From an uncultured virus (IMG/VR IMGVR_UViG_3300021365_000007) (Duplodnaviria > Heunggongvirae > Uroviricota > Caudoviricetes), in the IMG/VR virus record IMGVR_UViG_3300021365_000007: DNA of 22,360 nucleotides. One strand, given 5' to 3'. The position numbers were made by a program, and so were the translations under genes. Positions 2-22,359 of the stretch are shown piece after piece. The notes under the pieces are model-generated. The model had not been told where the DNA came from, ran no database searches, and saw nothing but the letters and a program-made list of their open reading frames with translations. Numbering within the stretch: the stretch's first letter is position 1; every line of letters begins with the position of its first letter.

Positions 2-3000
2 GATGCTAACATGGCTGTACTTATGCCTACAAACCTTTTAACATTTGGTGGTATGCTTAGACCTATGGCAATGGGTAAAAATGCTATATGGGGAGCAGGT
101 CTTACTAAAGAAGGTGGTAAGAAAGTACTTAAAGAATCTATTGAAAACCTACCAGGCTGGGCACAGAAAGGAGCTAGGCTTGGACGTACATACGCTAAAC
201 CTACAGTTACAGGAGCAGTGTCTGAAGGATTCCAAGAAGGTTCTCAGTATGCAATATCTGAGGGTCTTGCAGATTTCACTAGGGATGAAGTAGAAGAGTT
301 AGGAAGTGTTGATGCATTCAATGCTATGACCAATGGCAGAAATTCAAAAGCTATTGGTAGAGTTCTTAAAGACGGTGTAAAGAATGTTTCTAGTCCTGAA
401 GGAAGGGAGCAAGCTATGGTAGGAGCCTTAGTTGGTTTGTTGTCTGGAGGTATAGGAGGGATAAGAGCAAACAGAGCTAAAGACGAACGCACTAAAAAAG
501 CATTAGAATACTTTAACCAATTTGATAATTCTGTAAATCTAAAAACACTTGCTCAAAGTGATGAAATAGCAAAGCGTCACTTTAGGGCCATGGAGATTGC
601 TGAACAAAGCAACGACTCCAAAGCATATGACGATGCTAAGTTTAGATTAATCAGACAGATGGCTCTTACTCATGCACAGAACGGAACGTTTGATGCATTT
701 ATAGAGAGGCTTGAAGATACTAAAGAGTTGTCAGAAGAAGAGTTTAACTCATTGTTTGGGGTAGAAACTAAAGTAAAGTCTAGAGGTGAAGGTGGTAGAT
801 TTCAGAGTGTAGATGTATCTAACAAAGAAAGAATAGATGAGCTTGTAACAAGAGCAAAAGATCTTAAGGCTACCTATGAAATGGTGGAAGAGCTTTACCC
901 ATCTGTATCCCCAAAGGGAGGATTGCTTAAGACATTTATTAGAGCAGCTCAAGGAAAAGAAAGACTAGCAGAGCTTAGACAGCAAGACGCTGATCAAAAT
1001 CTTTACAAGCATGCTATGGTTTTGGCTATGACTGAAAGCAAAGATGCTGAAGAAAGAGCTCTGAAGAATCTCAAAGAACTTCAAAAGCTAGACCCAGATC
1101 TAGTCATTGAAGAGATAACAGATATTGAATCCGAAGGGTATGATGTAGCTTTAGATAAAGAAGGGAAAGAAAAAGTAGGTGTAAGTCGTCCTGAATTTTT
1201 AGAAAAGTCATTGCAGGAATCTGTAGATAGAGCTGTTGAGAATGGTGCTTCTAGAGAACAAGCTACAAAATATGCTCAATCAGCTTTAAATTTATTGACC
1301 GATCGTAATAATGCACGTGAGGCTTACAACAACTTAGAAGCAAGCCCTGAAGCAAGAGAGATCTACAAGCAGAGAAAGAAATTAGAAGCTGAGCTAAAAG
1401 AACAAAGACGTATAGATCAAGCTGCGGACAATGCTATCAACGATAGTGAAAGCCATGCAGATCTTGTTAAGGCTGCTGAGCAGTTAGATCCTGACGTTAG
1501 TGATGAAGCTAAAAAAAGAGTACAAGATGAGATAGTCTCACGACTTAGAAAAGTCAATGAGTTTAAAAGAAAGTTTGAAGCTATGGACCCGGCCCAAGTC
1601 AAAGCTCTTAACCCTGCAGATATGGAAGCGCTTGAAAAAGAAGCGTGGGAACTTGACGTAGAGGAAATAGATAAGACAAAAAGAACTAAGCCAAAAAGAA
1701 AAGCAGCAAGTGAAAACTCTAAAACTAAAACTAAAGAAGCTGCTAACAAACGGGGGAAAAAAGAGGCACCTAAAAACAAACAAGGTAAGGGTCTAAAGAA
1801 AGATGTAAGATCTAATAGGGGTAGAGCTAAGAAAGCAGTTGATCAGACTAATACTCTTGATACAACAACAGATATATCAGGAGAACAGTATAGTGGACAG
1901 TATAACTTAGTTAAGGGACCTGACGGTAGGACTTATGTACAAGTAGACAGTAAAGGTAATCCTGTAGAAGGAGACAGACAAGCCGGTCATAGGCTTAATG
2001 GGGAACCTATTATTACTGGACGTTCAAGACTTGCAGACCCAGAAGTAAACAGCGGTACAGAAGTAACTCTTGTTGCTATAGAAAATGACTGGTGGAACAA
2101 TGAAGCCACTGAAGCAGAAAAGAATGATCCTAATACTAAACTCCCTATCTATGTAAAAGTAGGTGATGATATAATAGGTGTATTAAGAGGTACACATACT
2201 GCACTTAGAGAAGCTGTAGTTGAAGAGTGGAAGAAAGGAAACAACGAAGCGGTTGTTACTACCATAGAAGAGAAGTTAGCTAACAGGTACTTTACAGCAG
2301 GAAGTTCTCAGATGGGAGTATTTAGTGAGCCCTTCTTCTATAATCCTACAGAGTCTTTAGGACCGGATGTAGTAATTGGTGTAGTAACACAAGGGGAGAA
2401 TGGGGTATTAAGATATACTGTACCTGATGGCTCACCTGAAGTAGATCAAATAAGAAAAGACTTCCAAGACAGGTCACCAGAGAAGATGGTTCCTGGTCAA
2501 GTGTTCTACGCAATTAAAGATCCACACGGTAAGTACAGAGCAGCGGTAGCATCTACTTCAAACTTAAGTAAGTCAGATCAAGTTCACGCTCTAGAGTTAA
2601 TGAAGGAAGGGAACCTAGACGGTCTTAAAGAACTAGTAGGTACCAACTTACTTTACGCTTTAGACGGTAAGGTTTTAACTGCTAAGCAAGCAGGAGAAGA
2701 TGTACTCTACACATTTAATGCTGTTGATGAGAACGGTAACCCTGATCCTAACCTTCCCGAAGGGATGTTTATACAGGTCAACCAAGATCTAGTAAACAAA
2801 GCACTAGCAGGAGAAGTAATTAACTTAGAGGACTTAACTGATGTACAAGCATCTAAGTTGTTGATTGAATTAAACCTAGGAAAAACATCAGAGAAAGGGT
2901 TAGAAGTACAGAACGAAACCGGTATAGCTCCAGAGAATCCAGAAACTGCTGAGTACGTAGCAAAGAATCTCGCAAAGCTTTTACAGAATATTATACAAGC

Positions 3001-6000
3001 TAAGAAGTATCAGGTCTCTATGGATGGTCTTAATACTGAGGGCGGGTATGTAGACTCTCGAGGCACTAACTACCTAGCAAGAAACGGAGTATCAGGATAC
3101 GTAAGGTATCTTACTGAAGGCACACAAAATCCTGAAGGGCAAGGGTCTAAAGGTATACTAAGGTCTACTACAAAGAGTACTAATGGCTCTGTCTTTATAG
3201 ATATTGGGGCTACATTAAGTAGTGAGTTTAAAGTTAATGGTGAGGAGGTGACAGCAGCTGATACAACTACAGCAGCACCATCTAACCCTGAGAGACAAGC
3301 TCCAGGTACACCATCAGCCCCAAGACCTAGTAGTGAACAGAACCCTGCTGATTTACTTGGTGGGGATACAGGACCAGCTCTTACTCCACCTAGTGGGCCA
3401 AGTATAAATCCAGAGCCAGGACCAGGAGATACTGTAATAGAAGAAGCATCAATAGATCCAGAAACTGGGCAGCTAATAATACCTTCTGCTCAACCAACTA
3501 GTACGGTTGGAGATACTCAATTAGATGTTATAAAAAAAGCTCAAGAAGCAGGAATAAGTTTAGATCGCTTAGAAAATGTTGTATTAAAAATTATAACAAA
3601 TAATCCATCAATTGACATTGATTTAGCACATCGTACGGCTTTATTTGAAATTCAGCAAGACATTGCAAATAAAACTAGAGGTCCACTTAGATATACTCCT
3701 ACTACTCCTATTTATAGTAAACTTAATAAGTCTCAAGCTGAGAAGTGGTTGAAGGACAGAGGTATCCCAGTATCGTTTTACGATCAAGCAGTTCGTATTG
3801 GGAATGGTACAGTGCACGGATATATGGTTGATGCGGGTGTAAAACTATGGACACAAGGTGAGGTAGGTACTGAGTACCACGAGTCATTTCACTATATATT
3901 TAGAACATTACTTAATGATAAGCAACGTAAAGCTTTATATGCAGAAGCTAAGAAGAAGTTTGATATTACTAAAGAAGAGCTTGCACAGTTAAAGAAACTT
4001 AACCCTAAGATTTCCAAGCAAGAACTTATGGAACTTGCTTTGGAGGAGCGTATGTCAGAAGAGTTTAGAGACTATGTTATGACTATGGAGGAGACAGCAA
4101 AGACTCTACCTGGAAAGATTCGTAAGTTCTTCAAAGACCTATACAACTTTATCAAAGCAGTGTTTGTAAATCCTGTAGAGATGAAGCAGCTGTACTCTTT
4201 AATTGAGTCTAACCGTATCCCCAAAAGATATCTTAGAAACACTGAGAAGTTTGCAGGCAAAGCAACAGCCTATGCATACAACGAAGATGTTGTAGATGTA
4301 GGATTTCATAATGAACTACAAAATACTTTAACAACACAGTTCTTAGTAAGCTATCTCAATCTCACTGATGGGGGTACACGAGATCTTACTGCTGAAGAGA
4401 CTAGAAAACTAATAGGGGATAAAAACAATAGAGGCCAGGTAGCTGAATTCTTTTTGAAGAACTCTTTTAGAAACAGAAGCGACAAGAAAAGATTAAGCAT
4501 AGAGGACTTATCTAAGGTGAGAAATAGGATCAATGCGGGACAACCTGTTGGTGAATTATTTGTTGAGTTAGGAATGGAGCAAGGTATACCAATGGATACA
4601 GGTTTACCTCAGTCTCTCATTAACGATCCTAACATGCATGGTCATACTGCTCAATGGTTTAGAATAGTATATCAAGGATGGTCAGACATAAGATCTAAGG
4701 ATAACTTAGAGAATACACTTAAGTTTGGATGGCAGAGCATCATGCTTCAAGGACTAGAGAAGTATGGTCTTAGTATCAAAGGAAACCAAAAAGGTATTGA
4801 GAATGATGCAAGAGATGAGGCTAATGATGAACAAGATCAATTTGATAAAATATATGCTTTGGGTGCTTTAGAGTACAACCCCATGGATAGGGCTTCAAAA
4901 GAAGTACGAAGACTTCTTGCAAATATCAAATCCGATAAACCAAACTCATTGGGCATGACTACCTATGTTAACATAGATGATCTTGTTCGACTTATTGTAC
5001 CAGCTACTGCAAATAAAAGCAGTTTAAACAGTATGATAGATGCTTTAAAAGTTAAGTCTAAGAACTTCCCACAGCTTAACCCTGTTATAGAAGCTCTTAA
5101 CAATGACTTCAGTAAGCAGCAGCTAGGAGCATTCTTTACAGTGTTTAGTAACAACTACACTACTCTAAAACTTATTGAGGAGTCATATGAAGATAACAAG
5201 AAGCTTACAAGGTTTATTAACTCTAACCGTAAAAGTGCAAGTAACAATGCTTTAGATGGTTGGACTCAAGGTGGTATAGAAAAGCAAGTACCTAAGCCTA
5301 ATGCTATCTTCAAAGATGTAAATGGTAAGCTTCAGGTAAACGAAGAGTTTGACGGACAGGACAGAGGAGCACTTGTAGCTCAAGCATATGGGCAGATGCA
5401 AGACAGAGGTAACTCTACTGAGGACAGAGTAAGAGGTTTAGCTCGTGTATTACACTACATGGGACTTAATCTTGGAGAAACTGTAGAAGAGTCTGTGACT
5501 AGACTAGGTAATTATCTCCAAGCTCAGAGTGAACTTGATGAGGTAAACGACGTACTATCTACACTCAACAACCTAATAGAAGAAAAAATAAGACCTTCTT
5601 ATATTGTAGGGGCAGCCTTTGAACTTAACATTGACAAGTCAACTAAAGCTCTCATACCGGGCCCTGTCAAAGCAAAGAAGAACCCTGTTAACTTCTTCGT
5701 TCAGCAAAGCAAGAGAATTAAAGAGATAGCAGATATCAAATCAAACTTTGAGTCACCACTAGCTATGTCTATAGTTGATGGAGCAGGTAAAGTTAAATAC
5801 CCATATAACCTCCCTACACCTTTGGATGCAGTTCTTAAAGAGATGCAAGGACTAGAACCAACAGATCCTAGATCATTAGATCTTGTAAAGATGATGGCTA
5901 GCGATGAATTCTTCAATGCTTTAGGTGTAGCACGATACCAATCATTGTTAAAGCGTTTGATTGACAGTGGTTCTTTTGAGATAGAATCATTCACTATGGA

Positions 6001-9000
6001 TGTGCTTAAGCAGGAGGACGAAGAAACTAGCAATATAGATTATAAAAATGCTAGTGCAAGAGACTCTCTTATTATGAGACTTGAAGCCTACGCAAATAAC
6101 GGCAATGACTTTGCATACTACGCACTCCCAACACAGGAGACTAGAGGACGTATGGACTTTATCAAGTTACCTAGGTTTACTAGTAAGAAAGAGATGATTA
6201 AAGCTGGTCTAGGAGATGTATCAGGAGCGGAAGCAATCATTAGAGGTCTTATTATACAAGACCTAATTAGAATTAATAACGACGAAAACATCATTAATAG
6301 TGATGAGTCCGGGGGAGAAAGCTTAATACAAGATTACCATACAGGTAGACAGAGATATAAAGACTTCCAGCTTTCTGGAATGAGTAATACAGTAGTAGCT
6401 GGGACAGGATTAAATCTTAGTACACTAGCTCCTGTGGTATTAGAAATGGAAGGAAGAGCTACTTCATCCAAAGAGTCTGTTTTATTTTACAATGCTGTCG
6501 ATAAGATGGTAAGAAATTACTTAGATACCCATATCTCAAGAGAGGTAAAGGAACTTAAAGCTAAGATAGATGACTACAATTTAGATCAAGAAGGAGCTTC
6601 TAGACTACCACTTCAAGCTATCAACAGACTAGGGGGTAAGGATAAGTTCCTACAGACCTTTGTTATAAATGATATTACAGCTAGACTAGAAATGGCTAAG
6701 CTGTTCCGTGGTGGTATATCTATGAGTAAAAACGTTACAGACTTCTACAAACGTATGGGTCTAATCAATACTCCAGGTAGTGTGTTTATGCTTAAAGGAG
6801 ATGTTGAGTCTGCACCAGACTATGGTATGTTTGAAGAGTACAACGAAGGTGTAATAGATGAGGTTAGAATACTTGACGAAGTACACAACGAAATTGCTGA
6901 AGACTACTACGATACTCTCGTAGAGCAAGGAGTACCTGCAGCAGAAGCAAGAGAAATTACAGATAAGTACCGTACTGAAATGGCTGATGCTACAGATGCA
7001 CAGGCATTTATCATCCCAAGTTTTTGGAGAGCTCTTAGAGAGGGTGAAGGACAGTTTAGTGTAGAAGATGAGCAGTGGTACGATAACTTTGAGAAAGGGG
7101 GTAAGTGGGCTGCTAAGTACTCAGCTCCAGAAAAACTGTATGCAGAATCTCAACAGCTTATCGAGTTCAACACATCAGAAGGAGTGGTAAAAAAGTATGT
7201 TGCCGACATGGCAAAGAACTCATACGTTCTACTAACACCTGAGTTTGTAAAAGGTAAGCCTGTATTACAACAACTGTACAACAAAATGATTGAAGACAGC
7301 ATTCATGTTGTCAATACAGTATCTGCTAAGAAAGGGGAGAAGCGCAATGTAATGAGGTTTGATCCTACAGTTGAAACAAACATCTTTAATAAGTTGCAGA
7401 CTACTAAGAGAAAAGGATCAAGACTCTTTAAGCCTCAGACTATAAATGACAAAGCAACAGATCTAGTTAGATTGAATAGGCAGATTCGTAAGAACATGCT
7501 CAACAATGTATTCCGTGACCAAGACTACATACTTAACAGAGGTCTGAGTAATGAAGAGACTGTCAATGGACAGGACATGCTTGATGAATACCACAACTCT
7601 TTCCAAGAGATTATGAACATTCAAATGGCTGACCTTAAGAATGAGTTAGGATTCGCAAAGCTTCAAGAGGCTAACGCATCTAATGATGCTAAAGCTATAG
7701 ATGCAGCTAGAACCAATATCTTTAAAAAACTTCGTAATCTATTCTTAGAAGAAAACTTAAAGCGTGACAGACTAACTGATAACATGGAGAAGCAACTGCA
7801 GCTTGTGTATGACAATGGTGTCGTAGACTTTGCAGTACCACTTGCATTCCCTGCATATCAAGATCAATACCAAGGACTATTCTTCTCAGTGTTTAAGAAC
7901 CGTGTACTTAAGACCATGATGAATGGTAAAGAAGTAGTACAGGTAGCATCTGTTGGGGGCATGATTGAAAATGAGAATGGGGAAGCTAGAGAACTTAGAT
8001 ACTTGTCTGTAGAAACAGATAAAAGCGGTAAGCGTATAGTACATGCTGAGGTTATGGTTAACCCTTCTATAGCTAAGAAGTTTGGGTTGAAGCCTGGAGA
8101 TGACTTATCTCAAGTTCCAGAAGAATTACTTAGAGCTGTTGGATATCGTATACCACATCAGGATAAGTCATCAACACTTATTATGAAAGTTGTTGGGCTC
8201 CTACCAAAGTCATACAACAAATCAATAGTTGTACCGGGTAACATCACAGTGATGATGGGTTCTGACTTTGACGTGGACAAGATGTTTGTTATGTTCCCAG
8301 AGTTTGCTAAGGCTTCACCTTTGACCAACGATTACGCAAAGGTAACGTTAGACAACTATGAGTCACTACGTGGAGAACCTGGACAGAACCTACGTAAAGC
8401 AGCATTGCAGAATAGAATGCTTGACATCATGGAGGCTATATCTTCTTCACCACTGCACTTTAAAGAAAGCATTACACCACTCGATCCTAGCACACTAAGA
8501 AGTATTATTGCTGAGGTAAATGACATTGTAGCTTTAGATGCAGAAAGAAGACCATTTGACTCTCCACTTAAGGAGATTGAGATGGAGGAGAACTATAAGT
8601 TCTCACAAAAACTTGTAGGTATATACGCTAATCAGCTTGCAGGTATGGCAGTTGCATCTGCTGGTAACAACGGAACAGGCGTACAAGTTCCATTCTCTAA
8701 ACAGTTTACTGTAAATGGGGAGATATTAAGTAAAATACAAGGGAGACCTGAGACATTTAAGATACTTGTTGAACACTTGTCAGCAGCTCTTGATGCCGCG
8801 AAAGAAATTATGCAGCCTCAGCTTAATGACAACGTTAATACTGTAGGTAGTAAGGCTTACTTATATGGTATAGGTATGGATCCTAAGCTTGTAACCATGT
8901 TACATAGAACACCTATGGTTATGGACTTTGTTAAGCTAGTTAACATTGACGGCTTGAGTCCTAACAAAGCATTTGAAAGGTTGGGTATTTTATCAGGTAT

Positions 9001-10492
9001 ACAAAGATTAATTAAAACCAATCCTGAAGGCACACCTAAAATAGCACTGTCCACTCCTATGACAGAAGCAAGTTTAAGAGCAGGTATGGGCGCTCAACCA
9101 AAAGAGAATGGTGCATATTCAGGAAAAGACTTAGCACTGTTAAAGAACTTTGTAATTAGTTACTATGCAGGTAAAGACCTACAAGACTTCTTCTCAGCTA
9201 TTACTCCTGATGTATTAGATGGTATCAGTGATTTAGGTAAGTTACAAGAACTCACAGAGACCATAGAAAAGTTTGACAAAGACGACAACATGTTTGGGTC
9301 TGCTTCAGTACAGCAATTCTTAACAGGAGATCAATATGGATTGTCTAAGACATTCTTTGAGACCTTCAGAGAAATGCTTACTTTGTCATCAGATATATTC
9401 CTAGGGGCTACACCTGGAGTTAAGAACTTTAAAGAGCAGTTTAAACTGTTAACAGGTAAAGAGTCTTTCTCTGCAGATGAACACCGAGCTATGGACAGAG
9501 CATTGTTCTATTGGATGATAACTCAACCAGGCTCACCGCTCAACTCTATGGTTGCACAGCAAGAAGGTAAGGAAGACCCCTCTCTATTTATGACTTCTTC
9601 AACTACTAACATAGTGACAGAGTTAGACAAGATGAGACAAGCTCACCCAGAAGAAGTGGGTAAGAATCCATTTGTTATGAAACTTGTAGCATCTACTACA
9701 AACGAATCCCCAAACAACAGGGTATTTAATATTCAGTTTGAAAGTTTGGATAAGATGACTTCAGATCTTACAAATGATTTAACCCGTGGGTTTAATGAGT
9801 TACTAAAAAGTAGTACTCCTGCAGTACGTAACTTTGGTTTAAGACTTATAAGACACCAACTCATGAGCACTGGATTTACTCCAGGGTACGGTTCATACTA
9901 CAACATGATACCAGTTGATTTCTTCACACAAACAATGGAAGGACAAACTCAGAGTGCAGCTGAATTTGCTAGAGCAGCTATAAGAGAAGCACAACAAGAT
10001 CCTGGGTACTTCAATGCAGCTACACTTGAAATTGCAAGAGCTATGGGAACTAGACGGACGCAGAACAAGCAGATGATTCCTATCAATAACGCTCAAGCTC
10101 AAACTGTAACAGACCCAGAGGGTAGACCATTAGACGGTGTTATAGAATTTAAAACTAAAGCAGATATGCCGGCTATCATAGCTAGACGTTATGCTCAAAA
10201 AAATGTGGACAAGATAGAACTGTTTGTAAAAGAACAAGGGAATAGATACCGCAGATTAAATCAATCGGGTATCAATGGGCAGTTCAATGAAATTAACACA
10301 GGAAAAAATTCTTACGTATCTTTAGGACCTAAATCAACACAGAAGAGAAAGGGTACTAAAAATGTAGGTAACCTAAGTGGATTCGTAGCAGCATATAAAC
10401 TAGCTGTTGAAACTGCAGGTAAAGCCAGAGCCCTTGACATCATATCTGAAGATCAGAATGAGCAGCGTGTAATAGAAAGAACTTGTAAATAA
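2..10492 (+). CDS. Giant virion-associated polyprotein containing a crAss-like two-barrel (double-psi beta-barrel) RNA polymerase and a zincin-like domain; 5' end probably lies outside the window
   Basis: The frame is open upstream of ATG 11 (GAT GCT AAC ATG). Catalytic GSDFDVDK at 8258-8281 is preceded by GYRIPHQ at 8141-8161. Other motifs typical of this RNAP family: DFYKR (6740), TDAQ (6992), SAKK (7322), LVGIYAN (8612), DAAKE (8792). HESFH at 3878-3892. Architecture resembles phi14:2 gp66 and crAss-like virion RNAPs. Confidence 0.92.
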   Translation, partial: DANMAVLMPTNLLTFGGMLRPMAMGKNAIWGAGLTKEGGKKVLKESIENLPGWAQKGARLGRTYAKPTVTGAVSEGFQEGSQYAISEGLADFTRDEVEELGSVDAFNAMTNGRNSKAIGRVLKDGVKNVSSPEGREQAMVGALVGLLSGGIGGIRANRAKDERTKKALEYFNQFDNSVNLKTLAQSDEIAKRHFRAMEIAEQSNDSKAYDDAKFRLIRQMALTHAQNGTFDAFIERLEDTKELSEEEFNSLFGVETKVKSRGEGGRFQSVDVSNKERIDELVTRAKDLKATYEMVEELYPSVSPKGGLLKTFIRAAQGKERLAELRQQDADQNLYKHAMVLAMTESKDAEERALKNLKELQKLDPDLVIEEITDIESEGYDVALDKEGKEKVGVSRPEFLEKSLQESVDRAVENGASREQATKYAQSALNLLTDRNNAREAYNNLEASPEAREIYKQRKKLEAELKEQRRIDQAADNAINDSESHADLVKAAEQLDPDVSDEAKKRVQDEIVSRLRKVNEFKRKFEAMDPAQVKALNPADMEALEKEAWELDVEEIDKTKRTKPKRKAASENSKTKTKEAANKRGKKEAPKNKQGKGLKKDVRSNRGRAKKAVDQTNTLDTTTDISGEQYSGQYNLVKGPDGRTYVQVDSKGNPVEGDRQAGHRLNGEPIITGRSRLADPEVNSGTEVTLVAIENDWWNNEATEAEKNDPNTKLPIYVKVGDDIIGVLRGTHTALREAVVEEWKKGNNEAVVTTIEEKLANRYFTAGSSQMGVFSEPFFYNPTESLGPDVVIGVVTQGENGVLRYTVPDGSPEVDQIRKDFQDRSPEKMVPGQVFYAIKDPHGKYRAAVASTSNLSKSDQVHALELMKEGNLDGLKELVGTNLLYALDGKVLTAKQAGEDVLYTFNAVDENGNPDPNLPEGMFIQVNQDLVNKALAGEVINLEDLTDVQASKLLIELNLGKTSEKGLEVQNETGIAPENPETAEYVAKNLAKLLQNIIQAKKYQVSMDGLNTEGGYVDSRGTNYLARNGVSGYVRYLTEGTQNPEGQGSKGILRSTTKSTNGSVFIDIGATLSSEFKVNGEEVTAADTTTAAPSNPERQAPGTPSAPRPSSEQNPADLLGGDTGPALTPPSGPSINPEPGPGDTVIEEASIDPETGQLIIPSAQPTSTVGDTQLDVIKKAQEAGISLDRLENVVLKIITNNPSIDIDLAHRTALFEIQQDIANKTRGPLRYTPTTPIYSKLNKSQAEKWLKDRGIPVSFYDQAVRIGNGTVHGYMVDAGVKLWTQGEVGTEYHESFHYIFRTLLNDKQRKALYAEAKKKFDITKEELAQLKKLNPKISKQELMELALEERMSEEFRDYVMTMEETAKTLPGKIRKFFKDLYNFIKAVFVNPVEMKQLYSLIESNRIPKRYLRNTEKFAGKATAYAYNEDVVDVGFHNELQNTLTTQFLVSYLNLTDGGTRDLTAEETRKLIGDKNNRGQVAEFFLKNSFRNRSDKKRLSIEDLSKVRNRINAGQPVGELFVELGMEQGIPMDTGLPQSLINDPNMHGHTAQWFRIVYQGWSDIRSKDNLENTLKFGWQSIMLQGLEKYGLSIKGNQKGIENDARDEANDEQDQFDKIYALGALEYNPMDRASKEVRRLLANIKSDKPNSLGMTTYVNIDDLVRLIVPATANKSSLNSMIDALKVKSKNFPQLNPVIEALNNDFSKQQLGAFFTVFSNNYTTLKLIEESYEDNKKLTRFINSNRKSASNNALDGWTQGGIEKQVPKPNAIFKDVNGKLQVNEEFDGQDRGALVAQAYGQMQDRGNSTEDRVRGLARVLHYMGLNLGETVEESVTRLGNYLQAQSELDEVNDVLSTLNNLIEEKIRPSYIVGAAFELNIDKSTKALIPGPVKAKKNPVNFFVQQSKRIKEIADIKSNFESPLAMSIVDGAGKVKYPYNLPTPLDAVLKEMQGLEPTDPRSLDLVKMMASDEFFNALGVARYQSLLKRLIDSGSFEIESFTMDVLKQEDEETSNIDYKNASARDSLIMRLEAYANNGNDFAYYALPTQETRGRMDFIKLPRFTSKKEMIKAGLGDVSGAEAIIRGLIIQDLIRINNDENIINSDESGGESLIQDYHTGRQRYKDFQLSGMSNTVVAGTGLNLSTLAPVVLEMEGRATSSKESVLFYNAVDKMVRNYLDTHISREVKELKAKIDDYNLDQEGASRLPLQAINRLGGKDKFLQTFVINDITARLEMAKLFRGGISMSKNVTDFYKRMGLINTPGSVFMLKGDVESAPDYGMFEEYNEGVIDEVRILDEVHNEIAEDYYDTLVEQGVPAAEAREITDKYRTEMADATDAQAFIIPSFWRALREGEGQFSVEDEQWYDNFEKGGKWAAKYSAPEKLYAESQQLIEFNTSEGVVKKYVADMAKNSYVLLTPEFVKGKPVLQQLYNKMIEDSIHVVNTVSAKKGEKRNVMRFDPTVETNIFNKLQTTKRKGSRLFKPQTINDKATDLVRLNRQIRKNMLNNVFRDQDYILNRGLSNEETVNGQDMLDEYHNSFQEIMNIQMADLKNELGFAKLQEANASNDAKAIDAARTNIFKKLRNLFLEENLKRDRLTDNMEKQLQLVYDNGVVDFAVPLAFPAYQDQYQGLFFSVFKNRVLKTMMNGKEVVQVASVGGMIENENGEARELRYLSVETDKSGKRIVHAEVMVNPSIAKKFGLKPGDDLSQVPEELLRAVGYRIPHQDKSSTLIMKVVGLLPKSYNKSIVVPGNITVMMGSDFDVDKMFVMFPEFAKASPLTNDYAKVTLDNYESLRGEPGQNLRKAALQNRMLDIMEAISSSPLHFKESITPLDPSTLRSIIAEVNDIVALDAERRPFDSPLKEIEMEENYKFSQKLVGIYANQLAGMAVASAGNNGTGVQVPFSKQFTVNGEILSKIQGRPETFKILVEHLSAALDAAKEIMQPQLNDNVNTVGSKAYLYGIGMDPKLVTMLHRTPMVMDFVKLVNIDGLSPNKAFERLGILSGIQRLIKTNPEGTPKIALSTPMTEASLRAGMGAQPKENGAYSGKDLALLKNFVISYYAGKDLQDFFSAITPDVLDGISDLGKLQELTETIEKFDKDDNMFGSASVQQFLTGDQYGLSKTFFETFREMLTLSSDIFLGATPGVKNFKEQFKLLTGKESFSADEHRAMDRALFYWMITQPGSPLNSMVAQQEGKEDPSLFMTSSTTNIVTELDKMRQAHPEEVGKNPFVMKLVASTTNESPNNRVFNIQFESLDKMTSDLTNDLTRGFNELLKSSTPAVRNFGLRLIRHQLMSTGFTPGYGSYYNMIPVDFFTQTMEGQTQSAAEFARAAIREAQQDPGYFNAATLEIARAMGTRRTQNKQMIPINNAQAQTVTDPEGRPLDGVIEFKTKADMPAIIARRYAQKNVDKIELFVKEQGNRYRRLNQSGINGQFNEINTGKNSYVSLGPKSTQKRKGTKNVGNLSGFVAAYKLAVETAGKARALDIISEDQNEQRVIERTCK
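3800..4170 (+). other. Zincin-like metallopeptidase domain inside the RNAP polyprotein
   Basis: GTEYHESFHYIF (HExxH at 3878-3892), a downstream LEERMSEEF helix supplying a candidate third Glu ligand (about 4040-4066), and an amphipathic 'IRKFFKDLYNFIK' helix. Boundaries are approximate. Confidence 0.75.
8141..8281 (+). other. RNA polymerase catalytic region (R-x-P...DxDxD metal-binding loop)
   Basis: GYRIPHQDKSS, then about 28 aa, then GSDFDVDKMF. DFDVD is encoded at 8264-8278 (aa 2752-2756 of the listed ORF). It matches the DFDID loop of phi14:2 gp66. Confidence 0.93.
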
Positions 10493-13400
10493 TGGCTTGT
10501 AAATATACTATAGGAGGAAGAGAAGATGCTACACTTGATAAAACACTCAAGTATGTAGAAGATACATCCACTAATCAACGTGAGGCTTTTGAAGTACTAG
10601 AAATTCTACTTACGGAAGATATAGTTGTACCAATAGTAGACGAAACCGATCCAGAAAGAGAAATTACAAAAGGCATTGTAATAGAAGATAGTTTTATAGA
10701 CGATAGAATAAATACTTTAAAAGGTATTAATGCAGGAGCTAAAGAATACTTTGGAGTAAGCGGCGATCTTATTAAAATTAGTAAAAAGGGTACTCTTACG
10801 GAAGTTACTATAAATACAGGCATACTGTCATCAATGAAAGCTGATCCTGATGCAGCCTACAGAGCCAATGAAGCACCAGAAGAACAGGAAGGAGCTGTAG
10901 AAGAAGAAGAAGAAACTGAAGAGTCACAACCAGAAAGCGAGGAGACTCTTTACGTTACAGCTCGTAGACAGTTGATGGATGACACTACAGGTATGCTTAT
11001 TGTTAACCTTCAAAAACAAATTGACAGGTTATCTAAAATACCAGAGACACAGCTTACTAAACAGAAGCTTGCAGAGATGGAGGTTCTTAAAAAAGAACTA
11101 GAGAGAATAGATAAAGAAAAAGCCAACCTAGATGACTACATGGACTTTGTAGATTTTACTGTCCGTACTTCTGAGAGAGCTGAAAGTTTGTTAGCTAAGA
11201 TCGAGGGGCAGGTATCTGAAAATCCTACACAAGAAGATAGGAACAAGATGCTTAAGGATTTATCCGAGCTTAAGAAAACCATAGATGCTTTTTATAATGA
11301 TAACTCTTCTAGGTCCCTTGTCAATAATCTAGAGGAGCTTGTTAAAGATCTAGATGATGTCCAAGAAGATATAGACGACACGGTAATTCTGTTACGACAG
11401 GCAGCTTCTGCAATGAAGAGAGTTAACGAAAAGTTTTTGGATACTGGGTTAGAACTACTAACAGATAATATGCTAGAGTCTGCTCCCCCTCAGATAAATA
11501 TAGAGTTGAACGAGAGGATAGCGGGTATCAAAGCTAACAGAAGAATAGATGGGCTATCAAGAATGGATAGAAGGTATAGAGCTGCACGTGCAGAAGGTAT
11601 GGGGGCCGTCCTTGATCTTAATATATTACAACTTGAAGAAAAGAAGATAGGTAGAGCGTCTATACTAAAGGAGCTAAGACAAACACATAAAGACCAAAGC
11701 TGGTTCAGTGCTTTCTTCTCACCTGTAGTATACAATAAACAAGCTTCTGTACAATTGTTTGCTGAGTCTGTGCGTAATGCATTGGTTACTGCAAATGACG
11801 AAACTTTAGATTTTAAATACGATATACTACAACCATCGTTTCAGGCTTTTAAAGCATGGAAGATGTCTCAGGGAAACATTAGTGAAGACAATGTAGAAAA
11901 GTTATATGAAGACTTTATAGAAAAAATTACTGTATCATCACTAGATAAAAATGGGGACAGAGTAGACACTGAAGCTCTTGCATTTATGCAGGAGTTCGAT
12001 ATGAACAAGTTTAATCTGGCTAAAGCAAATGCTTTTGAAACAATGAGGAGTGAGTACAACTTCCCAGAGGACCCAACTCAATACGATGAATACTTCAAAA
12101 GTGCTGTAGGTAAAGCATACCTAGGAGCTACAGCAAGATGGTATGCAGAGAACACTGAGAAAGTGCAAGGAGCTGAAACGATCTTAGCTGCACTACGATC
12201 TGAACGTGACGCAGTATATGCAGAAATACAAAGACTAAAACCTGAAGGACACTCTGATAGAATATCTGCTTTATATCTTCAATACAACGATCTAAAGTAT
12301 CAGCTTCTTAAGTCATACAGAAATGGTCAGTTCATAGGTAAGTTATCAAAACCCAAGCTATCTGAATATAAGAATACAAAGTATGCTGTTATGCCTGCTG
12401 AGGCAAGAGCATACTACGATGTACTATTAGCTCAATACAAAAAAGATCAGAAGAGGTTAGGTAGAAGCTCACTACTTAGAAACAGTTGGGAGGACTTCTC
12501 ATACATACTCCCAAGTGTAAGGAAAGATGCATACGATAGGCTCATGGAGCAAGGACCAATAAATAGTGCTAAAGATCTAGCAATAGAAGGTTTTAGAAAA
12601 CAGGAAACGGATACAGAGTTTGGGGCATTGCTTGACGCACATGGTGAGAAGATTCGTATGATACCACAGTACTTCACCAACTTGGTGGATGCTAAGGATG
12701 TATCACAAGACGTAACCAATAGTATGATCAAGTTCAATGACATGTCTAACAGGTACAACGCCAAGTCAGAAATACTAGGAGTAGTTACCATGATGGAGAC
12801 TGCACTAAAGAGTAGAAAGAAACTTACTATGCAACCTGATGGTACATACCTCCTAGACAATACAGCTAGACGTCTAGGTAGAATAAGCTCAAGGTTTGAA
12901 GCAGACGATCCACTTGGGACTAGAACGTACGATCAAGTAAAATCTTTTATAGATAATACTATCTATGGTATGAGTGAGCAAGAGTCTATGGACTCACAGT
13001 TTGATAGGATCAATAAAAATAAAGCTGCAAACTTTGCAGTTACTCTTACAGCATTTAGTACGTTATCTTTTAACTGGTTGCAGGCAGGTAACCAACTGTT
13101 GTTAGATAAAATGACAGGTACGCAGGAAGCAGTTGCTGGAGACTTTTATGGGGTAAAGGACTTAGCTTGGGCTAGAGCTAAGATGGCATTTGGTGGACAG
13201 CTCTCTATGATGAATGACAAGTTCCTACCAAAATTTGGTAAGAAAAATAAACTAGCTAAGTTCTTAGAATCCTTTGATGCTTTTCAAGCCTTTGGTAATG
13301 AGTTTGGTAAGGAAGCTGGAACAGCAAAAAAGAAAGCTTTGTCAAGAGATTCCTTTATGGTTCTACAGCAAACAGCTGAGATGTTAGTAGTAGCAGAGAG

Positions 13401-14352
13401 AGCACTAGCTATGGCTCACGCTACTGCAGGTAAAATGCTTGACAGTAGTGGTAAGGTTATACTGAACGAGAATGGTAAGCCCGCACATTTATATGATCTG
13501 CTGACAGAAAATAACAAGGGCAGGTTAATACTTGACCCACGTGTAGCTACTACAGGTAAGTACGCTTTTAATAAAGCCAAGTTTATCGCAAAGCTGCATG
13601 GTATGATGAAACGTACCAACCAGTTAAAAGGAGGATTCGATAGAGTACAAGCTCAAAGATCTGCTGTAGGTAAACTCGGTACGCTGTTCAGAAACTATCT
13701 TGTCCCTGGCTTAAGAAAAAGGTTTGGTAACTTTGATGGGGCTATGATAGATATTGAGATGGCTGCGGTCAACGAAGGATACTATGTAACGTTTATGAAT
13801 CAGATGATTAATGCCATGCTAGATCTCCAAGAGGGAAAGATAGGAGCAGCTATAGGTAAGATACGTCCAGGTATTTTTAAGAGTACTAAGAACTTAGATA
13901 GGACAGAAGCCAACGTTAGACGTATGTACTACGAAGTTATGATGTCTACTGTACTAACTATGATGGCAACATCTCTTGTAGATATGATGGATGATGAGGA
14001 AGAAGAGGGGTACGTAGGATCTTATGTAGCATACCAGTTACTTAGACTTAGTAGTGAGTGGTCACAGTTTAGAAGTACAGCACTCATAGATGTAGTACAA
14101 GACCCAACAGCTGCAGCTAACCCTGTTAGACACCTAGTAGAAGCTCTAAGAGCAATGTACATACACTTAGGGTACAAAGCAGGATTCAAAGATGAGTCAG
14201 AAGCTCTTTACCAAAGAAGATCAGGTAGGTGGCAGAAAGGAGATCCTAAAGTGTACAAAGAGATACTAGACTTTGCCCCTGTCTTGAGAGGCTTCTTTAC
14301 TTCTTCTGATCCAGAAGAGGCAAGAAAGTACTACGATATGAAAAAGAAGTAA
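10492..14352 (+). CDS. Large putative virion-internal/ejected (cargo) protein, 1286 aa
   Basis: Long ORF coupled to the RNAP gene by a TAATG overlap. Helical/coiled-coil composition, an acidic linker (10870-10944) and a C-terminal hydrophobic helix followed by DDEEEE. Size and position match the large proteins flanking crAss-like virion RNAP genes. Function is inferred from context only. Confidence 0.7.
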   Translation: MACKYTIGGREDATLDKTLKYVEDTSTNQREAFEVLEILLTEDIVVPIVDETDPEREITKGIVIEDSFIDDRINTLKGINAGAKEYFGVSGDLIKISKKGTLTEVTINTGILSSMKADPDAAYRANEAPEEQEGAVEEEEETEESQPESEETLYVTARRQLMDDTTGMLIVNLQKQIDRLSKIPETQLTKQKLAEMEVLKKELERIDKEKANLDDYMDFVDFTVRTSERAESLLAKIEGQVSENPTQEDRNKMLKDLSELKKTIDAFYNDNSSRSLVNNLEELVKDLDDVQEDIDDTVILLRQAASAMKRVNEKFLDTGLELLTDNMLESAPPQINIELNERIAGIKANRRIDGLSRMDRRYRAARAEGMGAVLDLNILQLEEKKIGRASILKELRQTHKDQSWFSAFFSPVVYNKQASVQLFAESVRNALVTANDETLDFKYDILQPSFQAFKAWKMSQGNISEDNVEKLYEDFIEKITVSSLDKNGDRVDTEALAFMQEFDMNKFNLAKANAFETMRSEYNFPEDPTQYDEYFKSAVGKAYLGATARWYAENTEKVQGAETILAALRSERDAVYAEIQRLKPEGHSDRISALYLQYNDLKYQLLKSYRNGQFIGKLSKPKLSEYKNTKYAVMPAEARAYYDVLLAQYKKDQKRLGRSSLLRNSWEDFSYILPSVRKDAYDRLMEQGPINSAKDLAIEGFRKQETDTEFGALLDAHGEKIRMIPQYFTNLVDAKDVSQDVTNSMIKFNDMSNRYNAKSEILGVVTMMETALKSRKKLTMQPDGTYLLDNTARRLGRISSRFEADDPLGTRTYDQVKSFIDNTIYGMSEQESMDSQFDRINKNKAANFAVTLTAFSTLSFNWLQAGNQLLLDKMTGTQEAVAGDFYGVKDLAWARAKMAFGGQLSMMNDKFLPKFGKKNKLAKFLESFDAFQAFGNEFGKEAGTAKKKALSRDSFMVLQQTAEMLVVAERALAMAHATAGKMLDSSGKVILNENGKPAHLYDLLTENNKGRLILDPRVATTGKYAFNKAKFIAKLHGMMKRTNQLKGGFDRVQAQRSAVGKLGTLFRNYLVPGLRKRFGNFDGAMIDIEMAAVNEGYYVTFMNQMINAMLDLQEGKIGAAIGKIRPGIFKSTKNLDRTEANVRRMYYEVMMSTVLTMMATSLVDMMDDEEEEGYVGSYVAYQLLRLSSEWSQFRSTALIDVVQDPTAAANPVRHLVEALRAMYIHLGYKAGFKDESEALYQRRSGRWQKGDPKVYKEILDFAPVLRGFFTSSDPEEARKYYDMKKK

Positions 14353-14371
14353 TAAATTATATATACAAAAA

Positions 14372-14734
14372 ATGAAATACATACTAACATTAATACTATC
14401 AATGACTTTTACTAGTCTACTTGGTCAATGTAATCAACATGTATTCACCTCAGTAGGTGCTACAGAATGGACAAATTTTGAATATATAGATTGTGATGGT
14501 GAAGATCATTACTTTGGGTTACCTGCCGGAGGATATACTATAATATTCTGTGCAGATATAGGTACAGCATTTGCTTTAAACGGGGATGGGTTTGTATACC
14601 CGCTACTAACAGAGCACCCTAACTACGCATCATGCGTACAAACACCGTGTGTAGGAGATTTTGATGAAGACGGAATTATAGGTGTAGAAGATCTCCTTGT
14701 ATTTTTATCAAACTACGGTGTATGCGAAAATTAA
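14372..14734 (+). CDS. Small secreted Cys-rich protein with a C-terminal dockerin/EF-hand-like Ca-binding motif
   Basis: Sec signal peptide MKYILTLILSMTFTSLLG followed by QC. C-terminus CVGDFDEDGIIGVEDLLVFLSNYGVC (14648-14725) has a DxDxDG loop and a DLL helix. A-rich leader before the ATG. Confidence 0.75.
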   Translation: MKYILTLILSMTFTSLLGQCNQHVFTSVGATEWTNFEYIDCDGEDHYFGLPAGGYTIIFCADIGTAFALNGDGFVYPLLTEHPNYASCVQTPCVGDFDEDGIIGVEDLLVFLSNYGVCEN

Positions 14735-15897
14735 TATATCTATTAGCCTTATGGGTTCCAACGCTATCTGCACAATGCGATGTAGCTATAAGTAGCTGGG
14801 ATGCCGCGTCAGGTGATATTGTTATTGAAGCAATCAATAGCGAAAATTGTGGTTGCAATGAATTTACAACTGAAGGTAACACGTGTGAAAATAGCGCTAA
14901 CCCGCACGTAAATAACAACACAACAATATCTCATATAGTTTTAGGGTTACATGTAGAAGGGTTAGATTATAATTGGCTGGATTGTTTGGGAGTCAATCAC
15001 CCGGGTTGGACATTTAAATCAATCACTCTTTACGGAAATCAGATACTAGGGAATGGAGATAGTTGGAGTGCGAATGTTTATGATTACGGTAGTTTAACAA
15101 ATGATTGCTGGTCTGAAATGCTTGCTAATGATACTCTATGTACTGAAATAGTTATATGGCAGATTAATATATCTAGAACTGCTTCAGTAGATGATGGTGG
15201 TTGGGCGGCAAATTCAGGGTTTAATCAAACGCAGAACTACCCTGACGTAGATCTTTCTAATAACACAGCTGTTAACTGTGCTTTACCCACATGTGATACT
15301 GTTTATGTAGACGTTATTGAATATGTGGATGTTATTGAATATGTAGATGTTATTGAATACATTACCGACACAGTGTATGTAGATGTTGAGTGGATAACAA
15401 CCGACACGCTGTATATAACTGAAGTGGACACGTTAATAGAGTATGTCCAATTACCACCAGATACTATTTACGAGTATATCTACCTAACTGATACTATGTA
15501 TGTAGAGACAGTTGTATACGAATACATATACATTTACAACACAGACACTATAACTGAATTTGTAGCTGAGTCTATATATATCGATTGTAATACTGGAGAA
15601 CAATGCACTCAAACATTTCCGTGTGACGAGGTATCTATTTTTGCTCCTAATACTGTTACTCCTAACGGTGATGGTTGGAATGATGTTTGGAAAATTATAG
15701 CAGACGGATCTTGCTGGGATCAATGGGAAACTCGTATCTACAATAGATGGGGAGGATTAGTTTGGATTAGCTCCTCTAACTTAGACGAGTGGGATGCTAA
15801 TGTAGCAGCAGGGGTTTACGTATATACTATAACCGCTCATAGTTCTGTTAATACTAGCGTGTTTGAATTTAATGGTACGATAACAGTATTGTACTAA
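14722..15897 (+). CDS. Secreted protein with a gliding motility-associated C-terminal domain (CHU_C / type B T9SS sorting domain)
   Basis: Signal peptide MRKLIYLLALWVPTLSA followed by QC. C-terminal IFAPNTVTPNGDGWNDVW...IYNRWGGLVW...WD...GVYVYTI...GTITVLY (15637-15894) fits the PNxFTPNGDGxND / IYNRWG / GxYxY / GxxxLxR consensus of TIGR04131/CHU_C. Confidence 0.9.
   Translation: MRKLIYLLALWVPTLSAQCDVAISSWDAASGDIVIEAINSENCGCNEFTTEGNTCENSANPHVNNNTTISHIVLGLHVEGLDYNWLDCLGVNHPGWTFKSITLYGNQILGNGDSWSANVYDYGSLTNDCWSEMLANDTLCTEIVIWQINISRTASVDDGGWAANSGFNQTQNYPDVDLSNNTAVNCALPTCDTVYVDVIEYVDVIEYVDVIEYITDTVYVDVEWITTDTLYITEVDTLIEYVQLPPDTIYEYIYLTDTMYVETVVYEYIYIYNTDTITEFVAESIYIDCNTGEQCTQTFPCDEVSIFAPNTVTPNGDGWNDVWKIIADGSCWDQWETRIYNRWGGLVWISSSNLDEWDANVAAGVYVYTITAHSSVNTSVFEFNGTITVLY
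15304..15357 (+). repeat. In-frame 18-bp tandem repeat x3 (YVDVIE)
   Basis: tatgtagacgttattgaa / tatgtggatgttattgaa / tatgtagatgttattgaa; differences fall only at third codon positions. Confidence 0.95.
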
Positions 15898-15920: not shown

Positions 15921-15956
15921 GAAAAAAAAGGGCTAATAAGCCCTCTTTTCTTTTTT
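15921..15956. terminator. Bidirectional intrinsic terminator between the convergent modules
   Basis: Stem AGGGCT (15929-15934), loop AATA, AGCCCT (15939-15944). An A-tract on the left and CTTTTCTTTTTT on the right give U-tracts on both strands. Confidence 0.85.
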
Positions 15957-16250
15957 AATCGCTATTTTTAGTAAAATTAAATAACCAATAAGATCCATTA
16001 AAGAATCTTCGGTGTCCGGTGTAATACCTTTATTTTTAATTCTACTTAACTTATCATCTATTCTGATACGTAATGATTCGGCTGCACTTATCTTTGAGAA
16101 CAATCTAATCGGGTTCAACGCGGAATCTCCGTAGGCTTTATTCTTCTCTTCCAATAAGTCTTGCAGCTCGCTCAAAAGATACTCTACTTCTAATAAAGTA
16201 TCAAACTCTTTTGAATTTATTTTTACTGTATCTATTTGCGTTTTTTTCAT
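15933..16250 (-). CDS. Nucleotide-modification-associated domain 1 (Nmad1/DUF1599)-like protein
   Basis: KNKAYGDS...RIRIDDKLSRI...EDSLMDLIGYLIL matches the KNxxYG / RxxDKxxR / DxxxDLxxY pattern of DUF1599. ATGA overlap with the upstream gene. Confidence 0.8.
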   Translation of the reverse strand: MKKTQIDTVKINSKEFDTLLEVEYLLSELQDLLEEKNKAYGDSALNPIRLFSKISAAESLRIRIDDKLSRIKNKGITPDTEDSLMDLIGYLILLKIAIKKEKRAY

Positions 16251-21668: not shown

Positions 21669-22124
21669 CATTATTTCTAAAATTTGATTTACAGTCTCAA
21701 TGTTTTGTCGTTGATTCCGTGGTACAAATAGTACCGGGGGATCATCTTGTTCCATTAAGAGCTGTTTAAACATCTTCCACTTAAGCGGAAAGCGTTCGTT
21801 TGCGTAGCCTTTACACTCTATGACCCATCGACCTTTAGGGTCTACAAAGTCAGGAGTGTATGTTATATCTCGCACCTTATGTTTTTGTTTATCTTGGAAT
21901 CCTGTCTTACCGTTGTCCTCGAAAGAGCTATTAGGATAGTGAAAACCTTTTAAAAGAACATACTTATGTTTCTCATAGTCTGCTTCTATATTAGCATCCT
22001 TGAGCATACGATAACAATGTGCTTCTAATTTAGAACGGAATTTGATCCCGTCCACTTCCGTGGGCTTCGACTTTATTTTTGCTTTCCCACTGCGGGCTTT
22101 TCTTTTCCAAGTTCTTGATGACAT
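21654..22124 (-). CDS. PD-(D/E)xK endonuclease, DUF1064 / T7 endonuclease I-like (possible resolvase)
   Basis: TEVDGIKFRSKLEA...ITYTPDFV...VIECKG. The true start could be slightly downstream of 22124. Confidence 0.85.
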   Translation of the reverse strand: MSSRTWKRKARSGKAKIKSKPTEVDGIKFRSKLEAHCYRMLKDANIEADYEKHKYVLLKGFHYPNSSFEDNGKTGFQDKQKHKVRDITYTPDFVDPKGRWVIECKGYANERFPLKWKMFKQLLMEQDDPPVLFVPRNQRQNIETVNQILEIMAPTK

Positions 22125-22359
22125 CTTTTGCTGTTTCTATTCCATGATCTTTAACTAAGTCCGATATATCCTTACTCTTATAGTGAGAAGGTATCTTCAA
22201 ATTAGTTAGATCATACTTACTGCAAATCTTTGCAGCCATAGTTTGTCCAGGATTAGAAGCCTTCTCAAAGTCGTTGTCGTAAAAGACTATTACTTTTTTG
22301 AAGCGCGTTTTGATTTCTTCAATGGTTTCTTTACTTGGCACAAGCATTTCTGACTGAAG
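22030..22359 (-). CDS. DNA primase, C-terminal TOPRIM portion (5' end outside the window)
   Basis: The frame stays open to the window edge (LQSE-MLVP). TOPRIM DxD motif VIVFYDND...GQ and downstream KDISD. Confidence 0.8.
   Translation of the reverse strand, partial: LQSEMLVPSKETIEEIKTRFKKVIVFYDNDFEKASNPGQTMAAKICSKYDLTNLKIPSHYKSKDISDLVKDHGIETAKDVIKNLEKKSPQWESKNKVEAHGSGRDQIPF

Follow-up and report, generated by a model that had tools for sequence, protein, structure and literature searches.

The stretch of DNA analyzed here (the window, 22,360 nucleotides [nt] in all) comes from an uncultured virus of the Caudoviricetes (IMG/VR record IMGVR_UViG_3300021365_000007), and two very large genes meet within it. 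The first is a giant open reading frame (ORF) that is cut by the 5′ end of the window, and the second encodes a protein of 1286 amino acids (aa). Each of the two proteins carries a single cysteine, and the two cysteines sit at the ends of the proteins that face one another across the gene junction. Three modules are named throughout: A is the HExxH module (like phi14:2 g067 and crAss001 gp47), B is the polymerase (like phi14:2 g066, or gp66, and crAss001 gp50), and C is the g065/gp49-like module. The giant is a fusion of A and B, and the 1286-aa protein is C. The features of the junction and of the two genes are as follows.

2 to 10492, plus strand: giant ORF, module A plus module B, 5′ end cut by the window, 3496 aa visible.
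3878 to 3892, plus strand: HESFH, a match to the HExxH motif of zincin-type metalloproteases, in module A of the giant.
8264 to 8278, plus strand: DFDVD, a match to the DFDxD catalytic motif of crAss-type RNA polymerase, in the giant (context GSDFDVDK).
10484 to 10486, plus strand: TGT, the sole cysteine codon of the giant, encoding the penultimate residue (ERTCK, then stop).
10490 to 10494, plus strand: TAATG, the stop/start overlap of the two genes.
10490 to 10492, plus strand: TAA, stop codon of the giant ORF.
10492 to 10494, plus strand: ATG, start codon of the 1286-aa ORF.
10492 to 14352, plus strand: 1286-aa protein, module C, like phi14:2 g065 and crAss001 gp49.
10498 to 10500, plus strand: TGT, the sole cysteine codon of the 1286-aa protein, encoding residue 3 (MACK).

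Sequence searches related both proteins to the RNA polymerase (RNAP) genes of crAss-like phages. The last 999 residues of the giant matched crAss001 gp50, phi14:2 g066, which is the catalytic RNAP subunit (E 3e-14 by tblastn), and chain 6vr4_A of the PDB, the phi14:2 RNAP (E 1.5e-17, query residues 116-272 against chain residues 1219-1389). DFDxD has been named as the motif of crAss-type RNAP (10.1101/2020.03.07.982082). Within the C-terminal half of the 1286-aa protein, residues 611-1281 matched crAss001 gp49 (“putative RNA-polymerase subunit”) and residues 631-1208 matched phi14:2 g065 (“RNA polymerase associated protein”), at 23-24% identity and E values of 1e-17 to 1e-25. PHROGs returned nothing for either protein, Pfam returned nothing for the 1286-aa protein and only DUF7443 below the cut-off for the giant (19.1 bits against 27), and megablast of window positions 9000-13000 against phages gave no match. 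With its DFDxD motif, its similarity to the phi14:2 polymerase and a g065/gp49-like next gene, we conclude from sequence that the locus is a crAss-like virion RNAP module in a two-gene layout, AB/C. An earlier note on this DNA had labelled the giant an RNAP polyprotein; the polymerase part of that label stands, and its restriction to polymerase does not, since an HExxH module is fused N-terminally. In all 11 aligned homologues of the giant, the HExxH residues H1616, E1617 and H1620 are unchanged.

Homologues of these proteins are carried in phage particles. Mass spectrometry identified gp65, gp66 and gp67 as virion proteins of phi14:2, which in some phages are a fused polyprotein (10.1101/2020.03.07.982082), and likewise placed gp47, gp49 and gp50 in the crAss001 virion, where they are not resolved in the maps (PMC10172136); the crAss001 spectra were recorded both with and without reduction. 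By this homology both of the window's proteins are most likely packed in the particle and injected.

A protein search recovered the full-length giant as P0014 (3819 aa), with 100% identity throughout the region used as query. The window opens near residue 324 of P0014, and the visible part of the giant corresponds to residues ~324-3819. P0014 contains a single cysteine overall, the penultimate C3818, and its first 323 residues are free of cysteine; the objection that the missing N terminus might be cysteine rich, which the earlier note had raised against itself, therefore falls. The first 51 bases of the window had no match in the viral contigs or metagenome contigs searched. The 1286-aa protein likewise has one cysteine overall, at residue 3. 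Between them the two proteins hold 2 cysteines, against ~60 expected in 5105 residues from the 1.2% cysteine content of control ORFs (defined below), and both cysteines are at most 3 residues from the facing ends. The earlier note had described these two positions, the TAATG overlap and a low cysteine content that is not a genome-wide bias, and each of these observations was confirmed. Nine other window ORFs contain 0 to 13 cysteines each (0-5%), and seven of the nine contain 2 to 13; a 105-aa ORF (15933-16250) has none and a cut ORF (22030-22359) has one. Products of these neighboring genes include rIIA-like and rIIB-like proteins, a 5′-3′ exonuclease, a DUF1064 protein and two secreted proteins.

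The terminal cysteines are conserved in the close lineage. A word-indexed protein search gave 13 homologues of C at 28-99% identity, and 13 of 13 have exactly one cysteine, at residue 3. The C-terminal region of the giant gave 13 matches, 11 of them full length (3742-4035 aa, 44-100% identity); in 11 of 11 there is exactly one cysteine, last or penultimate, and the N termini are cysteine free. Thus, C3 of the 1286-aa protein is invariant in the C alignment and C3818 of the giant is invariant in the AB alignment. Here and below, C-n denotes the position n residues before the last residue (C-0 is last and C-1 penultimate). P0025 is a cut protein with cysteines at 234, 1731 and C-2. P0026 (4883 aa) has no cysteine; it aligns with the giant and, through residues 3729-4880, also with the 1286-aa protein (28% identity, E 5e-127), and is thus a complete A+B+C fusion. 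A search aimed at longer fused relatives found none, a weak search that missed P0026 (the fusions came from HMMER). The earlier note had expected homologues to keep the terminal cysteines and to have few internal ones. The terminal residue is kept in the 13 C and 11 AB homologues and in 92 of 95 split forms of a wider sample, and internal cysteines are very rare in the window's lineage.

The wider sample was drawn by HMMER with C residues 601-1286 against 50%-identity cluster representatives and consists of the best 150 of 816 matches, of which 29 were excluded as fragments (no starting methionine, or a conserved region beginning before residue 400). The 92 of 95 complete proteins shorter than 3000 aa have a cysteine within residues 2-8 (52 at residue 3, 19 at residue 4 and 14 at residue 5). 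The N-end cysteine is the only cysteine in 75 of the 95, internal cysteines amount to 23 per 133,580 residues, and a cysteine was labelled within the last 10 residues in none of the 95 split C proteins. The control set comprises 400 further ORFs (unique, 150-899 aa), drawn from the window and from the loci fetched for comparison; its cysteine content is 1.2%, with a cysteine at residues 2-8 in 24 of 400 (6.0%) and within the last 9 residues in 25 of 400 (6.2%). In a large clade of the sample (P0055, P0063, P0068, P0097, P0102 and others) the N-end cysteine is followed by a conserved P-N-x-x-H/S/N (MxCPNKSH, MPFCPNLSN); in the window's clade the same end reads MAC, then K, R, E or V, then Y.

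Fused proteins in the same sample behave differently according to where the fusion lies. Among 26 proteins of at least 3000 aa, 7 have an N-end cysteine, whereas the other 19 do not (9 cysteines in 89,122 residues). The 7 with the residue are identified as B+C fusions by a DFDxD motif that lies 1382-2448 residues into the protein, and 7 of 7 keep only the N-end cysteine, one of them with one extra cysteine. In 11 proteins, P0026 included, DFDxD lies more than 2500 residues from the N end, which marks full A+B+C fusions; their cysteine counts are 0, 0, 0, 0, 0, 0, 1, 0, 5, 0 and 2, and none of these cysteines is terminal. Most of the fully fused giants (4500-5600 aa) have zero cysteines. Six long forms had no match to the strict motif pattern searched. 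On a FastTree phylogeny of module C (122 rows), the fused, cysteine-less state requires at least 5 changes.

Cysteines at facing ends were also found in 75 IMG/VR loci, many of them near-copies of crAss001. The junctions counted were same-strand pairs of ORFs, each of at least 800 aa and with a spacing of -30 to +250 nt, taken from the window and from all fetched loci except L002 and L090 and deduplicated by end peptides. Both cysteines are present at 34 of 43 junctions. The other nine comprise eight with a smaller upstream protein (at most 1182 aa), muzzle or cargo-like, outside the polymerase module, and one that reflects the start call in crAss002. Gene spacing over the 43 junctions ranges from -17 to +169 nt. 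A different kind of interruption occurs in some crAss001-like contigs, where the gp50 homologue is broken just upstream of DFDxD by ~0.9 kb containing a 181-aa HNH-like ORF (L035, 4136-5058; also L049, L063 and L077). The new ORF ends at that interruption have no cysteine, and the interruption probably represents a self-splicing intron that encodes a homing endonuclease.

Named crassviruses have four layouts of the modules, A/B/C, AB/C (the window), A/BC and ABC, and the count of terminal cysteine pairs equals the count of splits. The proteins at the split points are as follows.

phi14:2, A/B/C: g067 (1797 aa), only cysteine the last residue.
phi14:2, A/B/C: g066 (2180 aa), exactly two cysteines, residue 3 and the penultimate residue.
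phi14:2, A/B/C: g065 (1421 aa), only cysteine residue 3.
crAss001, A/B/C with A on the opposite strand: gp47 (2341 aa), only cysteine at C-2.
crAss001, A/B/C: gp50 (2412 aa), cysteines at 5, 1334 and C-8.
crAss001, A/B/C: gp49 (1349 aa), only cysteine at 5.
Intestiviridae (p-crAssphage, cr3_1, cr8_1, cr271_1, Rudgehvirus), A/BC: upstream protein of 1957-2749 aa, cysteine at C-0 or C-1.
The same Intestiviridae, A/BC: giant of 4070-4620 aa, cysteine at 3 or 5.
crAss002, A/BC: upstream protein, cysteine at C-1; the giant fits only with its start moved 32 codons to an internal M-S-C.
Suoliviridae (cr53_1, cr52_1, cr118_1, cr7_1), AB/C: upstream cysteine at C-0 to C-3, downstream cysteine at residues 3 to 6.

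For ctcc615, of which only the downstream giant was fetched, the cysteine is at residue 3. In the gut clades the terminal cysteines stay despite more internal cysteines. The order A-B-C is kept and the split points alone differ, since the module C region lies at the C end of the 4098-aa Rudgehvirus giant and p-crAssphage gp45 aligns weakly and collinearly with the N end of the window's giant (E 0.001). A circularly permuted gene order in p-crAssphage was considered and rejected on the same two observations. The crAss001 gp47 protein is a module A homologue (E 1e-9 to g067) encoded on the opposite strand from gp50, and its cysteine at C-2 and Cys5 of gp50 are both kept. Because these partners are on opposite strands and junction spacing varies, we conclude that the cysteine pair acts at the level of protein and not of DNA. 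We further conclude that the pair is conserved, that it follows the module split points and that fused genes lack it.

Two side observations concern gene calls in these phages. The annotated start of crAss002 gp33 (L080, 15927-16025) is probably 32 codons early, and the internal M-S-C at residues 33-35 fits the N-end rule of the sister phages. In cr53_1, cr52_1 and cr7_1 (L081, L085 and L087), many in-frame stops are read through in the module genes (TAG for cr52_1 and cr7_1, up to 148 in one ORF), and the cysteine rule holds.

One solved structure has the same signature. In the pre-ejectosome of cyanopodophage A4 (Anabaena phage A-4L), cryo-electron microscopy showed a disulfide between gp27 Cys1715 and gp26 Cys5 (PMC12002296, PNAS 2025), and these two residues are the only cysteines that the A-4L genome encodes in gp27 (1717 aa) and gp26 (1114 aa). 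As in the window, consecutive genes encode large ejection proteins, with a lone cysteine two positions short of the C terminus in the upstream protein and at residue 5 in the downstream protein; the corresponding residues in the window are the only cysteine of 3819 aa, at C-1, and the only cysteine of 1286 aa, at residue 3. A4 differs in its family, Saffermanviridae, and in having no RNAP in the pair, and the available text of the A4 paper reports one bond in one phage, with no split/fusion rule and without the word “cysteine.” N4-like phages (Schitoviridae) resemble the window in that a giant injected virion RNAP and its partners are almost cysteine free; cysteine is suppressed in their ejection operon, which is ascribed to passage through the periplasm (PMC11445570), and the earlier note's statement that the N4 virion RNAP lacks cysteine is thus in print. 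N4-like proteins differ in having no cysteine at all and no terminal pair, whereas the window keeps one cysteine per facing end; as the N4-like polymerase is a single chain, it offers no junction that a bond would have to span. Two-chain bacterial toxins, from an unrelated family, stay linked by one interchain disulfide while they cross the membrane and come apart when it is reduced in the cytosol (PMC6899712), but those chains are cut from a single precursor, and their disulfide does not connect chain ends.

The reading we favor, with a probability of roughly two in three, is that the facing terminal cysteines form a head-to-tail disulfide between injected cargo proteins. The earlier note had proposed that the pair links the facing termini: the pairing has strong comparative support, since it follows the splits and is absent in fusions, and the disulfide chemistry in crAss-like phages is argued by analogy with A4 and from the other inter-subunit disulfides of the crAss001 virion (PMC10172136). 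The cysteine-free ends at the probable intron also speak for the reading. The thiol at the C end of AB and that at the N end of C would bond in the particle, and the disulfide would do the work of the peptide bond that connects the modules in relatives whose genes are fused into one. The joined product, ~5100 residues, would be linear because the bond lies between chain ends, so that passage through a narrow channel in a partly unfolded state would still be possible, which fits the partly unfolded ejection proposed for crAss001 cargo (PMC10172136). The tethered chain might then thread the tail in fixed order, and the reducing cytoplasm would plausibly free the parts after entry. Depletion of cysteine inside both proteins may likewise be due to ejection. 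As a plausible origin of the covariation, a small deletion across the junction could remove the stop, the start and both cysteines at once and so give a cysteine-free fusion. The time of bond formation, ordered ejection and release by reduction are all parts of the proposed mechanism that we infer.

A number of observations weigh against this reading. The cytoplasm in which particles are built is reducing, and the habitat of gut phages is anoxic; the disulfide might form at a late stage, or not until the particles meet air. In the published crAss001 maps gp47, gp49 and gp50, the proteins that would be bonded, are not resolved (PMC10172136). The window's proteins had no similarity to A4 gp26 or gp27 by pairwise BLASTP, the one comparison made (best E values 2.0 and 0.13), so that A4 is an analogue and not a homologue. 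The cysteine-free state is not universal, as up to 17 internal cysteines occur in the gut clades. Three of the 95 split forms have no cysteine (P0074 and P0084, which adjoin a 5570-aa fusion on the tree, and P0138, which adjoins a 2356-aa form) and may be cut gene calls. P0039, P0043 and P0046 are long and cysteine free with a B-like DFDxD distance; they fall inside full-fusion clades and may also be cut gene calls. The sequences are related, and independent pairs are 3 to 4 concordant against 0 opposite (p 0.125), too few for significance. Finally, some small upstream cargo-like proteins end in cysteine with no facing N-end cysteine (p-crAssphage gp47 and crAss002 gp30). Smaller proteins upstream of the module with a cysteine near the C end were noted as L079 gp48 and gp47, L080 gp30, L082 gp20 and L088 gene49; several of these cysteines precede G-G and a basic tail (RCGGHRR, RCGGKKKIA, CGGRKRMKRK), and the next protein has no facing cysteine. 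A complex prediction for the last 350 residues of the giant and the first 350 of the 1286-aa protein, made with alignments, scored 0.03 and was not used as evidence.

One alternative is that the terminal cysteines, with other ligands, hold a shared metal ion such as zinc that clamps both ends. A clamp has the same pairing logic and the same covariation with splits as a disulfide, and the P-N-x-x-H/S/N that follows the N-end cysteine in the large clade could supply a second ligand. The window's own clade, with MACK at one end and CK before the stop at the other, offers one cysteine per side and no conserved second ligand, and in A4, the sole solved case with the signature, the density was read as a disulfide (PMC12002296). 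We regard a metal clamp as unlikely. Alternatively, each terminal cysteine could act alone, by a bond to the portal, the capsid interior or a small cargo protein, by homodimerization or by modification, with the facing layout as a side effect. The upstream cargo-like proteins that end in cysteine with no partner are consistent with such a role, as are the many disulfides in crAss001 tail proteins, where inter-subunit disulfides occur in tail and portal-vertex proteins (PMC10172136). Independent action leaves unexplained why the N-end and C-end cysteines appear and vanish jointly with the splits and why the outer ends of the chain, the N end of A and the C end of C, have none: an N-end cysteine is found in 0 of 11 AB homologues, a C-end cysteine was labelled in 0 of 95 split C proteins, and most full fusions have neither. 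Separate roles are thus improbable, to about the same degree as a metal clamp.

A third possibility is that the cysteine codons belong to a nucleic acid signal that recodes or couples the junction, for example by a ribosome hop or frameshift that yields a fused protein. The possibility was raised by a 10-nt direct repeat, CTTGTAAATA, that flanks TAATG at 10482-10491 and 10496-10505 and occurs nowhere else in the window, with the stop codon directly after the first copy. Across 23 junctions, however, the longest word in common measures 4-11 nt and changes from junction to junction, the spacing varies as given above, and the crAss001 gp47 and gp50 genes have the cysteines on opposite strands. 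The repeat is explained by a similar x-C-K coded on both sides with the commoner codons (TGT 38 against TGC 15; AAA 310 against AAG 248). On these grounds recoding was rejected and is very improbable. Chance or a general compositional bias, for which the low overall cysteine content of both proteins is the one point in favor, is contradicted, and is the least probable of all, given that most neighboring genes have 1-5% cysteine and that 92 of 95 split forms carry the N-end residue against a 6% background.

Two readings of individual cysteines were dropped. Lipoprotein attachment was dropped because the N termini inspected start M-A/S-C and leave no room for a leader peptide, and prenylation because the C-end cysteine lies anywhere from the last residue to 8 before the end.

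Directly 3′ of the polymerase module, at 14372-14734 and 14722-15897 on the plus strand, the window encodes two cysteine-rich proteins (6 of 120 and 13 of 391 residues). Both have hydrophobic N-terminal stretches that resemble signal peptides. The 14722-15897 product contains a CHU_C type IX secretion sorting domain (E 3.8e-15) and thus looks like a phage-encoded cargo of the type IX secretion system.

Cysteine suppression in ejected N4-like proteins (PMC11445570) and one head-to-tail disulfide, that of A4 (PMC12002296), were already known. A full-text literature search found no description of a terminal cysteine rule in crass-like phages. The terms cysteine, disulfide and Cys are absent from the phi14:2 preprint (10.1101/2020.03.07.982082), and in the available text of the crAss001 paper “cysteine” does not occur and the mentions of disulfide concern tail and portal-vertex proteins only (PMC10172136).

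A broader generalization, which we might call a terminal cysteine code, is offered as a tentative idea and is on balance doubtful. Crassvirus cargo, and perhaps that of podophages more widely, with A4 as a second, unrelated instance, would be a linear polymer in which a disulfide restores the thread wherever a gene is cut. The polymerase would enter in a chain of 0.6-0.9 MDa in gene order, and cytoplasmic reduction, perhaps aided by the thioredoxins of several crassviruses, would be the switch that frees it and activates it to transcribe early genes. Thioredoxin-family genes lie near early genes in 4 of 15 annotated crAss-like regions (L079, L083, L088 and L089), and a link between them and reduction of the incoming cargo is speculation.

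The rule is of use in annotation: it marks true protein ends, corrects start codons (as in crAss002 gp33), flags cut gene calls and separates real protein splits from interruptions by introns. Crass-like phages are the most abundant human gut viruses (PMC10172136), and the rule bears on the question of how polymerase cargo amounting to ~0.6-0.9 MDa passes along a narrow tail.

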